From contig OX597815.1 of assembly GCA_951406725.2 (NCBI GenBank), forward strand, positions 83,514,001-83,578,000: a DNA stretch of 64,000 nt, written 5' to 3'. A program made the translations under genes and the position numbers. How positions within the stretch are numbered: the stretch's first letter is position 1; each line of letters opens with the position of its first letter. Shown in pieces: positions 6,936-63,990 of the stretch. Under the pieces are notes generated by a model. The model did no database searches and was not told where the DNA came from. It was given only the letters and a program-made list of their open reading frames with translations. The stretch is from Octopus vulgaris (Eukaryota).

Positions 6936-9225
6936 GCTAATGATAAAAATAATAACAACAAATAATACACATCTACATTTGTTCCGTTTCTAACTCTAAG
7001 CTACCATTATATATGTGTGTGTGTAGTGTGTGAGTGTATATATATATATAGATATAGATATATATATATACATATATAAGTATATATATATATATATATA
7101 TATATATGAGTATATATATATATATATATATATATAAATATATATATGAGTAGATATATATATACACACATACATACGTCCATATAAAAAGAACTAGCAA
7201 GATAGATTGAGAGGGGTAAGAGTGGCATGTCTTAACCCTGATATCTAGGAACAGGAGAAGATTCAAAGGAAATATCACGGGTGGGCTCATCTACTGAAAT
7301 GCCGCCGAGCGTTTTATCCTTAGCCGTTAGCGAAAGAAAAAATCTAATCAGAAATGTCGCTTTCATCATAAACAGTAATTTTTCAATGTCCGACACCGGC
7401 ATGCCTTTGACAGTTCTGTCTTCCTACCACATTTTCTGTTCAATCTTTTCCCTCTCTTCTCTCTTCCTCTCTTCCAGTCTCTTCTCTTCTCTCTTCCCCT
7501 CTCTTCCTCTCTCTCTGTCTCTTCTCTGTCTTCTCCTCTCTCCTTCTCTCTATCTCTCTCTCACTATCTATATATCTTATCTATCTATCTATCTATCTAT
7601 CTATCTATCTATCTATCTATCTATCTGTTTATATGACAATCTATTTATATATCTAGCTATCTGTCAGCAATTTATCAATTAATAAATCTCTCTCACTCCT
7701 TCTCTTCATACACACACACACAAATATATATATATATATATGTATGTGTGTATGTGTGTGTGTATATGTATGTATGTACGTGTAGGCACGTATTCATAAG
7801 AATGTGCGTTTGCATGTATGTATGTGTGTAACCAGCTATCTCTTCCAACTCACTATAAACGTTTACATATTTTGTATTACATTCTCCCGTTGTGTTTCAT
7901 CTTTCATTTTCGTATTCCAAACAATAGCTGTTTACTTTCTGTTATATTAATGCTATTGTACTTTTCACAATGTATTAACTCTTTTTAATCCATATATATC
8001 TAACACTCCCCCTTTTTTATTTCCACCGTTCTCTTCCTCTCTGCCTTTATATTCTCTAAACACTTATCATTATATATATTTATCGGCCTGTTGAATTATT
8101 CCATATAACATATTGTATTTTTCTTCTTATATACTCATATTTCAATCTATCATTATTTCTGTCCATTCACCCATCTCTAAATCAGCTTTGCATTATCTAA
8201 TATTTCTCCTACTCTCTATCTCCTACCTATTATGAATACATCTCTCCAAATAATTCTTAATGTATTGCCCTTTTTACTTCACAATAACGACATGCAATAA
8301 ATAGTTCACTAAAATATTATTATTCATCTACAAGAGCTCTCGCACTTTACTGAGTTTCAGCAAACACACGCGCGAGCACACACGTACACATACATGTATA
8401 CATATATAGATGCATGCATACATACATATATACTTACATACAAACATATTTATATCTGTAAGTACTGCTGCTCAGTTACCTTCTTCAGAATGTAAAACTA
8501 TTTTCAGTTTGCGAAGACCCTTAGGCATTTTTGATTGATCATGTGGGCGGGGCATGGGAATTGCAACGAAGGTTTCCTTTTGTTCTGCTTATTATTTATT
8601 TTGCCATATAAACGCATCTATTGATTTTTTAATTCGGTAAGCAGAAGTATGTAGCTCTGGTAAGAAAATAATAGCGAGGAAGTAGGTAAGATGAAGATAG
8701 GGCGCCCCTAATCCGAACATTTGATAAGTTTAAGACATCATTCTAGGAGAAATATTCGTATTAAATAGACAGAGAAAAATATTTATTCGTGGATAACACC
8801 TGCTACGACTGCAGAAGAATCTTTGGCCTAGTAAAACTCAGTGTGAATGAAATGAGTAAAACCTGGTTACAGAAGAGAAATATCACATGGTTCAATCCGA
8901 TTGTATAGGCTAGGAACTTTTTAAAGACGTTAGGAAAATACTTTCTACACTTCAGTAAATATGTTAACATTTTTAATAGGCATAAAGTGATATCTGCGTA
9001 TTACACCATTAAAATCTAACGGATAATATAGCAGCAATTAATAATGAGTACCTCTAATTATTTGTGCAACAATGTCATCCCTATCTCATATATATATATA
9101 TACATATATATATATATATATATATATATATATATATATATATATATATATATATATATATATAGTGATGTGTCCTTAAGTTTTCAAACAAGGCAGATAA
9201 GCACCTCTATCCAGCAAACCCAGCG

Positions 9226-9266
9226 CCAGAGACTAGTTTCAGAGTCATTGCTCTTCAGCAGTCTGG
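9226..9266 (-). ncRNA. Type I hammerhead ribozyme with a core mutation (CUGcUGA)
   Basis: Reverse complement reads ccaga-CTGCTGA-agag caatga ctct-GAAA-ctag-TC-tctgg. Confidence 0.8.
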
Positions 9267-9774
9267 AGTAGCTTGACTTGCTAGCTGTCGATGCTTATTC
9301 ACCTTTGAAAACTTATAACAGTTTCAAGTGAAATAGTTTCACTGATCTACAAAATTAGAAAGATTGCATTTCTAAATCTCTTAGAGAGACTTATACAGTA
9401 GCAGAACGATAAAGTGATGGTTTGTTGCCAACTTAATGTGGCACTCACAGGAAAGGAAAGAATGCTACTCCTATTTAGTCCCAGGAAACACCGTTTCCAT
9501 TTGGCTATGTGACACAAGCGTTCTGTGTCCTTAAGTTTTCAAACAGGGGAGATAAGCACCTCCGCCCAGCAAACCCAGCAACAAGAGACTTTAAAGGAAA
9601 CTGAACGCCTGTGCAACAAACCATCACTTTATCGAGTTGGTATTGTATATGTCTCTCTGAGACATTTAGAAATGCAATATTTCTAATTTTGTAGATCAGT
9701 GTATTTATTTCACTTGAAATTCCTATCAGTTTTCAAAGGTGGATATGCATCGACAGCTAGCGAACCAAGCTACT

Positions 9775-9815
9775 CCAGACTGATGAAAAGAAATGACTCT
9801 GAAACTAGTCTCTGG
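9775..9815 (+). ncRNA. Type I hammerhead ribozyme
   Basis: ccaga-CTGATGA-aaagaaatgactct-GAAA-ctag-TC-tctgg: 5-bp stem I, palindromic stem III, GUC cleavage triplet. Stem II has one mismatch relative to the other copy. Confidence 0.88.
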
Positions 9816-61768: not shown

Positions 61769-63043
61769 TCTACATATATATATATATGCCAGGACAAATA
61801 AATGAAAGAGGCACTCAACATATCTGATGAGAGTTACATATATTATTATCTGAAAACAGTTCGATTCGGCTTCATGCAAATCTATATTACGAAGACTCGT
61901 CACAGGAACCTAGATCGTCAGAGAGAAAGAGAGGGGGTGAAAGAGAGAGAGGGGAATGAGAAAGAAAGTGAGGGAGAGAAAGAGAGAGAGTGGAGAGAAA
62001 GAGAAAGTGTGGAGAGAAAGAGAGATAGTGGAGAGAAAGAGAGAGAGTGGAGAGAAAGAGAGAGAGAATTAGAGAGGGAGAATGAAAGAGAGAGTGTGTG
62101 AGAAATAGAATGAGACACACACACAAACATAGAAAAGAAGTTGAACACGAGTAATTTTAAAGCGAGGATTTACACAAAACACAAATTACAGATTACAGAG
62201 TTAAGTATAACCCTTTTCGGTTTCTTTATTCTGTAATCTGTGTTCTGTATTGCATGATAAATATAAGCTTTAAGCTAACTTCCGTATTTCTTCCTTTCTA
62301 TCTCCATCACAGCTCGATAAGTATCGTTCTTATTGCTATATTTCAAAGCTGATGGCAGTAACCCTCGTTGCAAAGGTTGGGCGTTAATATCTCTTACATT
62401 TAAGCGTTTGTCTATTATAGCTATACCCTGATTATACCACACACTGTATATACGCACGCACACATACACACATATATATATGTGTGTGTTTGTGTGTGTG
62501 TGTGAGTGTGTTTATATATATATAAACACTTATAAATATATATATACATAGATACAAAGATATATATACATATATTTGTATATTTATATACTTAGATATA
62601 TATATATATATATATATATATATATACACACACATACATATATATGTATATGGATACACACACACACACACACATATATATATATATATATATATATATA
62701 TAGAGAGAGAGAGAGAGAGAGAGAGAGAGAGCTACATTTATACATACACAAGTACATTCATAAATGCATGGTACATACACACATTTATGCCTACTGGTAG
62801 ATACTCGCAGAAACGTACACACAAGTCTGGTGAAATTATTTCTTTGTTGATCTCATGTTTACTGGTATTTGGAGTCTCTAATTCTAGAATATTTCTTCAG
62901 ATGACAAGATATTGTAAGAAAAAATATCTCTATTGAATGGATGTTCTTCGGCTGTTACGACCTGCAGTACTACTTCTGGGTTAGCAGAACATTAATTGCG
63001 AAATATATACCTACAAGTTCTAATTCGCAGGTGAAGGGTAAAG

Positions 63044-63358
63044 CTCCCCTTTTGGTCGAGACTACGAGATTGCACCTAAAAAGTTACCCTCCGAGGCACA
63101 AGTTCGGACAAAGTTGTTTATGGAAGCCTAGCGGTCGCCCATGCATACCAGCTTCCCTTTCGACGCCACCGATATTATTCAAAGGCAAAAGCCGGTACAG
63201 CTTGGCACGAGTGACATTGCAACTCAATTCTACAGCTGAGTGAACTGGACCAACGTGAAATAAAGTGGCTTGCACAAGGACACAACACAGACCAGTCTGG
63301 GAATCGAACTCGCTACTTCATGATTGCTAGGCCGACGCTCTAAGAACTGAGCCATGAG
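63044..63358 (-). mobile_element. SINE, third family
   Basis: Homologue of 56789-57113. Confidence 0.88.
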
Positions 63359-63940
63359 CATCCGCATGTACGAAGTAAATAAGTAGTTCAAAGGAACCAG
63401 CTGAAATGTTAATTTAAAATTATTAGAGAGAAATAATTAAAGGATGATTCAATCAAGAAAAGTTCAATTTAGGGTAATTTAAATTAAAATTAAAGATGAT
63501 GCGTGCTGAAGAAAAGTAATTGAGTTGCAGATACTATAAAATTTATCTACTGAAATAGCTGTGATAGTGAATAAGTAACTTCAAAAGTTCCAATGTAAAA
63601 TACACGTCCTTAGTAGAATTCGATCAGTATATGAAAACAAAAGAAAAAACAATCATCAATACAAATGCCATGTATATTCAATTTAACTCCTGATAATGAG
63701 ACTGTGAAAGTATAGAAACATCGGATAAATTTTTCCAAAACATCGATAAAAAGCTGAGAATATTTGAACAAATATGAAATAGAAATGATAGACCTTTTAC
63801 TCGTGTATTTAATGGAGTATATACATTATACATACACATATTCACAGATATATATATATATATATATATATATATACCATTATATATATAAATATCGAAC
63901 AATACCGCTTTGGGCGAGAAGGAGTTTCAATTGTGTATTA

Positions 63941-63990
63941 AGGCTACTATTGGTTTCATATTGATGAGTACCTCATCAAATATCACGCCT
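63941..63990 (-). ncRNA. Degenerate hammerhead with a damaged CUGAUGA box
   Basis: Reverse complement reads aggc-GTGA-tatttgatgag gta ctcatcaatat-GAAA-ccaatag-TA-gcct. Stems I and II are intact, and it lies about 50 nt from (TA)n. Confidence 0.5.

Follow-up and report, generated by a model that had tools for sequence, protein, structure and literature searches.

The question raised by this window of the Octopus vulgaris genome (the whole stretch of 64,000 nucleotides analyzed here) is why hammerhead-like sequences should recur in nine different contexts. The original prediction was that a diverse set of non-autonomous, TA-targeting ribozyme elements is mobilized by Penelope-like elements (PLEs), of which two remnants lie in the window. 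The explanation favored here, with considerable confidence, is that the type I hammerheads reside in families that end in (TA)n and are of two kinds: families C, D and E would be truncated ends of coding PLEs, and families A and B would be ORF-less retrozymes, likely copied in trans.

All 12 of the sites originally listed do contain a hammerhead-like sequence, and the predicted excess over shuffled sequence was borne out. Descriptors requiring an exact core with stems I and II found 5 matches in the window, compared to a mean of 0.37 and a maximum of 4 in 150 block-wise dinucleotide shuffles; when a palindromic loop III is also required, 4 matches remain, compared to 0.05 in shuffles. Of 11 core-plus-palindrome matches in unselected sequence (400 kb), 10 also had a perfect 3-bp stem I that the scan did not demand; this unrequested stem occurred 0 times in 10 shuffles. 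One might still suppose that AT-rich repeat DNA produces such motifs by chance, since matches to a loose descriptor (one core mismatch, no stems) are frequent in shuffles (189, compared to 265 observed) and Rfam is silent. However, the strict descriptors yield only 0-0.4 matches in shuffles, and the motifs occupy the position within the PLE 3' UTR that has been published. The strict-descriptor shuffles and the scan of unselected sequence refute the chance reading, which is left with practically no probability.

The silence of Rfam was general: no hammerhead appeared among the best 150 of 257 matches in the window, at the gathering score in 6 loci, or at E<=10 in 9165-10060. The Rfam matches in the window are microsatellite and hairpin look-alikes, and a mir-9 match at 17276-17359 is actually the perfect inverted repeat of family J. 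Of the two kinds of search originally proposed, only descriptors recovered the motifs, with matches above shuffles in the unselected 400 kb. A descriptor with a perfect stem II is itself nearly empty, because most families are mismatched at the stem II base. By one descriptor, the unselected sequence contains 13 motifs, which corresponds to a genome density of ~32 motifs/Mb. The window, with 5 motifs in 64 kb versus 2.08 expected (P=0.06) and three of the five in one tandem array, is not clearly denser than the genome, and its density cannot be upheld as the undescribed property it was first taken to be.

As originally noted, the contexts lack evident homology, with no blastn match at E<=0.01 between any two of the 12 window segments. 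Each of the nine contexts is a dispersed repeat family that keeps its hammerhead core family-wide, and the hammerhead-shaped motifs are members of at least ten genome-wide repeat families, mostly ending in TA microsatellites (Table 1). Compared with their own families, five of the 12 window copies carry damage (the minus-strand copy of A and those of F, G, H and I): an 8-nt deletion in F takes out the cleavage triplet and the 3' strand of stem I, G is changed at G8 and in the palindrome, H carries three substitutions, and I is changed in the core. The middle copy of B has one change in its palindrome. The motifs of N1 and J, and the doubtful one at the 46-48 kb remnant, were absent from the original prediction; the inverted elements at 15030-15340 and 17530-17935 contain no convincing hammerhead. 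Some elements lie side by side, with N1, C, J and, further on, D within 3 kb.

Table 1. Features of the window, with the number of candidates found in the genome search
Feature	Position	Strand	Description	Candidates
Family A, putative retrozyme	9169-10052	.	two head-to-head arms, each ~1.2 copies of a 356-bp monomer	2346 (first look)
A hammerhead	9231-9261	-	loop III ctag, extended stem I; A6 changed	
A hammerhead	9780-9810	+	loop III ctag, extended stem I	
Family G	11398-11648	+	hammerhead 11538-11614, long stem II, family loop III catatg	1214
N1, 5'-truncated PLE	15353-16617	+	GIY-YIG end, 3' UTR, minimal U3-A8 hammerhead 16492-16522 (+), ends at (TA)n	6586
Family C, apparent 3' end of autonomous PLE	16673-17150	+	hammerhead 16935-16968, core CTGATGC (C at 9); sense arm to long end	218
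C inverted arm	16673-16815		to short end	
Family J	17209-17498	.	perfect 106-bp inverted pair, hammerhead-like motif per arm	
J motif	17344-17394	+	core CCGAAGA, loop III ctcagag	
J motif	17241-17291	-	core CCGAAGA, loop III ctcagag	
Family D, apparent 3' end of GIY-YIG-coding PLE	18018-18268	-	hammerhead 18153-18226, 55-59-nt stem II, loop III cgatcg	2602
Family E tip	20761-20830	-	without hammerhead	
Family E, apparent 3' end of RT/GIY-YIG-coding PLE	24165-24680	-	minimal hammerhead 24270-24297, core CTGTYGA (U at 6), loop III cg	5928
Decayed PLE-like coding remnant	46012-48860	-	ends in (GATA)n; doubtful degenerate hammerhead 46089-46119 (-)	
Family B, putative retrozyme	54152-56128	+	3.15 tandem copies of a 563-bp monomer at 54360-56128	2304
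B inverted arm	54152-54346			
B hammerheads	54665-54708, 55228-55271, 55791-55834	+	loop III cgtacg	
Family F	56140-56475	+	long stem II hammerhead 56309-56397, loop III cacgtg	675
Family H	57455-57700	-	U3-A8 hammerhead 57505-57534, family loop III ccgg	1717
Family I	63890-64000	-	U3-A8 hammerhead ~63945-63986, family loop III ccaatgg	255

Families C, D and E appear to be 5'-truncated PLE ends, the truncated 3' ends (pseudo-LTRs) of RT/GIY-YIG-coding elements, because their longer genomic copies extend upstream into RT and/or GIY-YIG coding sequence of their own. RT/EN matches occur in 10 of 29 other C loci; in 6 loci they lie in sense and reach the EN end, which precedes the hammerhead segment by 0.3-0.8 kb. 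Two of the C loci with such matches agree with an 803-aa database protein at 97.7-97.8% identity. For E, RT/EN matches were found in 8 of 19 other loci, with YIDD, Cys linker and GIY-YIG motifs. In a sister copy of N1 (L184), an open frame of 607 aa includes RT, Cys linker and GIY-YIG motifs, and its RVT_1 and GIY_YIG_2 matches are weak, below the cut-off. The order of RT followed by a C-terminal GIY-YIG, upstream of the hammerhead segment, is thus present in C, E and N1, and their Cys-rich linker, judged by eye, suggests the Neptune/Nematis type. In D, 1.3-1.7 kb common to 4 of 24 other loci reaches a GIY-YIG frame (Pfam PF01541, E=1.6e-5, above the cut-off) whose pattern looks Hydra-like by eye; only the GIY-YIG is seen upstream, and the RT is placed beyond the 1.5-kb flank. 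Pfam found nothing significant in 7 ORF pieces of the window itself.

These longer copies bear directly on the alternative closest to the original prediction, in which nine independent non-autonomous mini-elements are mobilized in trans by the two PLE remnants of the window. The window copies are indeed short and lack ORFs, the multimers of A and B are likewise ORF-less, and no ORF was found upstream of F, G, H or I in the limited flanks seen (910 nt common to two independent copies of F, ~0.4 kb for G, 1.5 kb of 4 loci for H and 0.2 kb for I). However, the non-autonomous label fits A and B but not C, D and E, which reach coding sequence of their own, and the 15353 remnant, while correctly recognized as a PLE, has its own hammerhead and 3' end and, like the second remnant, is at most a candidate mobilizer. 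The alternative is accordingly very unlikely. The second remnant, at 46012-48860, is PLE-like by its motifs, with weak statistics (E=0.011 pairwise, E=0.035 profile), and no further copies of it were found among the loci retrieved in this analysis. As for the remaining families, G is old (73-78% identity), and I has an inverted partner just past the window end. The right arm of J extends ~70 nt further to (TA)n, and although a genome search with J gave no match, including to J itself, copies of it turned up in 8 other loci as by-catch among loci retrieved for other families.

The association with TA belongs to the 3' end. A run of (TA)4 or longer lies within 90 nt of that end in 20/20 loci of B, 27/29 of C, 22/24 of D, 14/19 of E and 23/24 of F (74-100%), compared to 8/28 (29%) in A and a background of 11.3%; the predicted TA bounding thus holds for B through F, but A is mostly not TA-bounded. 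The PLE set of C, D, E and N1 combines a fixed 3' end with variable 5' truncation, an inverted partner and an optional tail, except that no inverted partner or second end of E was found in 19 loci. The distance from ribozyme to TA, in nucleotides, is ~120 in 18 of 39 cases and 180 in 14 for C, ~40 in 5 of 31 and 130-140 in 21 for D, and 80-90 in 11 of 30 and 160 in 9 for F. Among inverted partner arms of D, 9 of 11 halt at the short end. Retrozyme B shows this same two-end "tail" footprint. Its 32 outward ends fall at monomer position 531-556 (18) or ~81 (14), essentially all into TA, and TA-like microhomology extends over several bases at both end sites. All 12 two-armed loci, the window included, pair one short with one long end, which would have a probability of 0.5^12=2e-4 if the ends were independent.

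From their sequence, family A (monomer of 356 bp) and the young family B (563 bp) are best described as ORF-less tandem retrozymes. Each monomer is strongly self-paired and has one hammerhead; the minimum free energy of the circular monomer is -146.1 for B versus -110.7+/-7.0 in 25 shuffles (z ~ -5.1) and -102.3 for A versus -80.3+/-5.2 (25 shuffles; z ~ -4.2). In A, 14 of 28 other loci continue across the junction between monomers. B is tandem in 17 of 20 loci, and its copies are 97-100% alike, spread over many contigs and variable at their 5' ends. Both families are likely copied in trans by a PLE-type protein. None of the PLEs found shares sequence with A or B; PLE matches in one A locus and two B loci are co-occurrence at the level of the locus. 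No RNA-labelled run carrying the B monomer was found among the matches listed. Contigs of four runs (three guessed to be RNA, one of unknown type) cover the B monomer and bridge the junction; they carry no record of molecule ends and are uninformative on transcription or cleavage.

A and B might instead be satellites derived from pseudo-LTRs, spread by DNA recombination or DNA-level transposition with the ribozyme as a passenger. Local tandem growth by unequal crossover is discussed in a 2026 preprint (10.64898/2026.07.22.740005), and B does form long arrays, with at least 5-6 units in 3.4 kb. However, B is dispersed at its high identity with two fixed 3' ends into TA and variable 5' ends, and its inverted pairs of one short and one long arm are the footprint of coding families C and D. 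A satellite origin is therefore improbable.

The observed repeats, structures, end positions and upstream coding sequence can be read in terms of the following model of PLE-type insertion. At a (TA)n run, a PLE protein would make cuts in both strands and prime reverse transcription at one of two internal RNA sites downstream of the ribozyme. Most cDNAs would end early, so that only the ribozyme-bearing 3' end is inserted; priming from both cut ends would yield a head-to-head pair, short at one end and long ("tailed") at the other. In A and B a multimeric or circular RNA is the presumed template and would give permuted copies of more than unit length. A palindromic stem III is predicted to pair two ribozymes, in which case cleavage would require a dimer or a protein. 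Fresh copies would regenerate TA flanks and accumulate next to each other.

The ribozymes of these families are predicted to cut RNA. The majority sequence has the canonical core CUGANGA...GAAA...UH in A, B, D, F and G and the U3-A8 variant (TTGANAA rather than CTGANGA) in H, I and N1, and the type I assignment is supported; a single core position differs in C (C9), in E (U6) and in most copies of J (C4). The description of the motifs as minimal applies to the short palindromic stem III but not to stem II, which is 55-70 nt long in D, F and G. Stem I is only 3 bp in C, D, F, G and H, and several families have palindromes of 6-8 nt. Perfect and mostly differing palindromes occur in 19 of 28 motif clusters, where the outer pair was demanded by the scan. 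None of six window motifs gave the complete three-helix fold as a monomer, and only A had a notable z-score. Within family F, 0 of 31 pairs had a double change (17 copies), not beyond shuffles, and RNAalifold found 1 of 35; this is as expected of copies decaying after insertion and is not support. Among diverged relatives of D found by profile search, double changes preserve base pairs of stems I, II and III in L105, L187 and L143, and L003 is without stem I; four non-D profile matches at E<1e-6 could not be parsed as whole motifs. The variant lists of Lunse, Weinberg and Breaker from 2017 reportedly may already contain U6, C9 or C4 cores.

The variant cores (U6 in E, C9 in C, C4 in J) could be inactive relics that spread because the ribozyme is dispensable for PLE insertion. 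A natural A6C change at position 6 reduced activity (PMC3088659), a PLE was inserted in vitro without need of its ribozyme (PMC11167929), and the loop III of C and of N1 forms no stable duplex in computation. On the other hand, U6 is found in 26/26 copies of E and C9 in 33/35 of C, and the family majority has otherwise kept the core, both stems I and II and the cleavage triplet intact. The relic reading has a real chance of being right, somewhat short of even. It concerns activity alone and is compatible with the main explanation of PLE ends and retrozymes.

A bolder version of that explanation is held only tentatively: B would be a currently active retrozyme whose PLE-protein footprint (two fixed priming sites, short and tailed arms, TA targets) is direct sequence evidence for PLE insertion of animal retrozymes. 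The genome would contain ~100,000 hammerheads from dozens of families, among them high-copy lineages whose U6/C9 cores function and whose long palindromic dimer helices serve as pairing codes specific to each family. In any case, at the density given above the genome is a rich natural hammerhead library comprising two dozen families or more; Rfam detects none of the families tested, and the main text of its recent repeat annotation does not mention ribozymes. The footprint of the young retrozyme B makes the inserting protein and RNA sites of animal retrozymes directly testable, and the fixed variant cores probe the in vivo drift of the hammerhead core, or whether PLEs need a ribozyme at all.

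PLE hammerheads, retrozymes, TA bias and even a TA-targeting hammerhead PLE from an octopus are all already published; there is no new class here. As described in the available parts of PMC4209133 (Cervera & de la Pena 2014) and PMC8557442 (Craig et al. 2021), the pseudo-LTRs of EN+ PLEs have minimal type I hammerheads near the 3' end with palindromic loop III and the U3-A8 variant, and many unrelated families per genome, mostly truncated single motifs. The hammerheads act as dimers (PMC4209133). Opposite-strand pairs 100-700 bp apart also occur, as do an inverted 5'-truncated partner, a tail at one end and a (TA)n bias (PMC8557442); apart from dimer action, these features are seen here too. 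In contrast, the octopus window has tails of ~60-100 nt rather than the 30-40 bp reported, families with 55-70-nt stem II and 6-8-nt palindromes, and fixed U6 (E) and C9 (C) cores not met in those parts of the two papers. The octopus element Hydra-1_Obim (PMC8557442 Files S1 and S2) likewise combines (TA)n preference with a hammerhead, and its stem III ccaatgg is that of family I; it is one family from another octopus genome, and as far as those files could be seen it is unlike every window family in core and stems, the likeness to D being only that of the D endonuclease to the Hydra-clade pattern, by eye.

Metazoan non-LTR retrozymes (Cervera & de la Pena 2020, PMC7229834; 10.64898/2026.07.22.740005), so far as the consulted parts of these sources go, resemble A and B in being tandem and ORF-less, with a single type I hammerhead per monomer, low GC, self-pairing, co-occurring PLEs and, in B, a U-U mismatch at the stem II base. 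The B monomer exceeds the 170-400 nt of PMC7229834 and lies within the 51-972 bp of the preprint, in which cleavage was seen for 1 of 9 predicted retrozymes (Li, Clavereau & Pollet 2026). In contrast, A and B are known here from DNA alone, with no parent pLTR found, and the same parts of these papers do not describe a target preference or the PLE two-end footprint. The less familiar features are this footprint in B and the fixed variant cores of successful families (U6 in E, C9 in C). A close precedent for the footprint is PAc, a Poseidon element from the green anole (Frangieh et al. 2024, PMC11167929), in which a pair of internal RT start sites likewise sets the tail, both strands are cut and targets are AT-rich; PAc primes without target homology, whereas the end sites of family B carry short TA-like microhomology.

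A strict descriptor (exact core, stem I at least 4/6, stem II at least 3/4) recovers the strong hammerhead sites of the original prediction, with 5 matches in the window against a mean of 0.37 and a maximum of 4 in 150 block-wise dinucleotide shuffles. When a palindromic loop III is added to the descriptor, 4 matches are found in the window and 0.05 in shuffles; the remaining listed sites are recognised only via their genomic families. Rfam models, which had been proposed as a check, gave no hammerhead among the 150 listed of 257 window matches, at gathering score in six loci or at E<=10 in 9165-10060. 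A minimal query (core, GAAA, 4-8-nt palindrome, UH) gave 11 matches in forty 10-kb stretches picked at round coordinates, 10 of them with a perfect 3-bp stem I that the query does not demand, and 10 shuffles gave a mean of 1.4 matches and none with stem I. With a fuller descriptor, 13 motifs are found in these 400 kb and 0 in 10 shuffles. The resulting rate of 32.5 motifs/Mb (Poisson 95% interval 17-56, too narrow since matches cluster) extrapolates to ~90,000 motifs genome-wide, in an assembly of 2.8 Gb in 227 contigs. Because the window holds 5 motifs against 2.08 expected (P=0.06), and three of the five form one array, hammerhead density is a property of the genome. The window is microsatellite-rich, TA arrays making up 2.9% of its bases; for the 400 kb of unselected sequence the figure is 2.6%. 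The ~970 kb of loci retrieved hold 113 motifs in 28 clusters, 19 of which have a perfect loop III palindrome and a few of which are probably noise.

For each family, the best 40 candidates of a first-look genome search were scored and 8 to 30 of those were examined; among the examined copies, the majority sequence of every family yields a hammerhead of type I. Compared with their own families, five of the twelve copies in the window are damaged, the F copy having lost 8 bases that comprise the cleavage triplet and the 3' strand of stem I. The families do lack evident primary homology, as originally predicted, with none among the twelve window segments by blastn at E<=0.01. C and the 15353 element (a 5'-truncated Penelope-like element, or PLE, with its own hammerhead) are kin via their proteins at about 45-63% identity, and their 3' tips are 74-76% identical. 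The listed sites stood, and three more had been missed (see table). One of these, the perfect 106-bp inverted repeat of family J (continuing to 17498), scores above the Rfam mir-9 gathering score; a microRNA was rejected, the sequence being two inverted arms of a common repeat end that bears a hammerhead.

Features of the window (candidate numbers are first-look search output, not copy numbers)
Feature	Position	Remark
Family A query	9165-10050	2346 first-look candidates
Family B query	54360-56128	2304 first-look candidates
Family C query	16930	218 first-look candidates
Family D query	18150	2602 first-look candidates
Family E query	24265	5928 first-look candidates
Family F query	56305	675 first-look candidates
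Family G query	11535	1214 first-look candidates
Family H query	57500	1717 first-look candidates
Family I query	63941	255 first-look candidates
U3-A8 hammerhead motif in 3' UTR of 15353 element	16492-16522	missed originally
Family J hammerhead pair in perfect palindrome	17209-17426	missed originally
Doubtful hammerhead motif	46089-46119	missed originally
Inverted pair between (TA)n and 15353 PLE remnant	15030-15340	contains an internal duplication of 28 bp; seen once more, at L100; the pair gave no hammerhead
Inverted pair between TA runs	17525-17935	older, 78%; possible very degenerate hammerhead; no further copy in fetched loci
Decayed RT-like coding stretch between TA-bounded E pieces	21000-24150(-)	by eye, a non-LTR retrotransposon remnant
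Short fragment	26190-26900(-)	resembles a 3' end from a further non-LTR retrotransposon
~1.3-kb element, terminal inverted repeats, transposase-like frame	49389-50680(+)	by eye, Tc1/mariner type

The original prediction took all the families to be non-autonomous mini-elements. Longer copies of C, D and E continue upstream into PLE coding sequence, which marks these three, on sequence grounds, as 5'-truncated 3' ends of PLEs. The query for the C loci was the PLE protein of a sister to the 15353 element, whose 607-aa frame shows the motifs of an RT, a Cys-rich linker and a GIY-YIG endonuclease (Pfam matches are weak). Of 29 other C loci, 10 match this protein; in 6 of the 10 the match runs in sense and reaches the endonuclease end 0.3-0.8 kb ahead of the hammerhead segment. 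Two C loci are ~98% identical to a database protein of 803 aa. In D, 4 of 24 other loci have in common an upstream stretch of 1.3-1.7 kb that extends to a GIY-YIG frame. RT or endonuclease sequence is present in 8 of 19 other E loci, with continuous homology of 1.4-1.8 kb in four of the eight. The ends of F, G, H, I and J are PLE-like, and no ORF was found beside them in the visible flank. Short segments of two annotated host proteins, P0098 and P0105, match the PLE protein at 70-77% identity and probably represent repeats taken into gene models.

By their anatomy, A and B are non-LTR retrozymes. The B monomer (563 bp, ORF-less) is in tandem in 17 of 20 loci, with 97-100% identity between contigs. 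Family A, with a 356-bp monomer, is older (84-90% identity among best matches); its copies have scattered start points within the monomer, and at 14 of 28 loci they run across the junction between monomers. Folded as circles, the A and B monomers are far more stable than their shuffles. By-catch hammerhead families were seen at L152:96, L153:8667-9406, L156:7050-8385, L158:5607, L177:1414, L004:1029, L099:900-1032 and L133:2933 (locus:position), with the palindromes cgcg, ccgg, catatg, ccaattgg, catgcatg, cacgtg and ctcgag; the several that lie in tandem or inverted pairs may be more retrozymes.

The predicted bounding by TA runs is borne out for the 3' ends of B-F and not for A: (TA)4+ lies at most 90 nt from the 3' end in 20/20 loci of B, 27/29 of C, 22/24 of D, 14/19 of E and 23/24 of F, but in 8/28 of A, against a random-position background of 11.3%. 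The loci counted here were the top matches of queries extending to the element end, a choice that favours end-bearing copies and not TA as such. The 5' sides are TA-bounded far less often, B excepted. Two 3' end positions recur, ~60 nt apart in C, ~95 in D and ~70 in F. Among 32 outward ends of B, 18 map to positions 531-556 of the monomer and the other 14 to ~81, with one end of each kind in all 12 two-armed inverted loci; inverted partner arms of D stop at the short end in 9 of 11 cases, and the short/long asymmetry recurs in the copies of B, C and J within the window. The footprint of C, D, F and B is the pattern published for PLEs, an inverted 5'-truncated partner with a tail at one end (PMC8557442), and the one-end tail corresponds to the two internal RT start sites described, following cleavage of both strands of AT-rich DNA, for an anole PLE (PMC11167929). 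The 15353 element, C, J, D and another inverted element stand in a row at 15353-18268 with only TA runs in between, and back-to-back insertions occur in other loci, e.g. L030. It is suggested that TA runs are repeated landing pads.

What is established comprises the repeat families, the anatomy of their motifs, the coding sequence ahead of C, D and E, the end positions and the TA flanks; the mechanism proposed here goes further. A PLE RT-endonuclease would cut (TA)n, and cDNA would be primed at either of two sites 3' of the ribozyme. Early termination would leave ribozyme-bearing stubs, and priming by both cut ends would generate head-to-head pairs. Multimeric or circular RNA would be the template for A and B, copied in trans. 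With a palindromic stem III, cleavage would need a dimer or protein (PMC4209133, PMC6765202); for palindromes of 6-7 nt, pairing between molecules at -7 to -10 kcal/mol is predicted and no hairpin, and minimum-energy folding brings 0 of 6 single motifs into the three-helix form. Counted against this mechanism, or limiting it, are the dispensability of the ribozyme for insertion in vitro (PMC11167929), cleavage by 1 of 9 predicted frog retrozymes (2026 preprint), TA-like microhomology at B end sites, and a search that met no PLE sharing sequence with A or B.

Stem covariation, another test of the original prediction, gave a divided answer. Three diverged, profile-found relatives of D (L105, L187 and L143) retain pairing in stems I, II and III despite double changes, but a fourth (L003) is without stem I, and 0 of 31 pairs covary among 17 copies of F. 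The cores also vary: families H and I have U3-A8, E has U at position 6 in 26/26 copies, C has C at position 9 in 33/35 and J has C at position 4 in 5/7. Natural U3-A8, A6C and U4C cores have been published, A6C being weakly active (PMC3088659). U6 and C9 are absent as strings from the ribozyme table in the supplement of PMC8557442, and neither appeared among the records listed by a literature search on hammerhead A6U and core variants. The U6, C9 and C4 cores may still work, or they may be relics.

Earlier work already covers hammerheads in PLEs, non-LTR retrozymes (PMC7229834) and the proposal that these derive from PLEs (2026 preprint), as well as the bias towards TA. Hydra-1_Obim, an octopus PLE in the supplement of PMC8557442, is listed there as preferring (TA)n and carrying a hammerhead. 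Literature searched on hammerheads with Penelope, octopus or cephalopods, on retrozymes with microsatellites and GIY-YIG, and on Penelope annotation in octopus yielded neither an inventory of the present families nor any report of the PLE tail footprint in a retrozyme; the words ribozyme, hammerhead and retrozyme are absent from the main text of a 2026 octopus repeat annotation (PMC13282606). The motifs are real and the families belong to already known kinds, and the retrozyme footprint and the variant cores are the points that merit a bench test.
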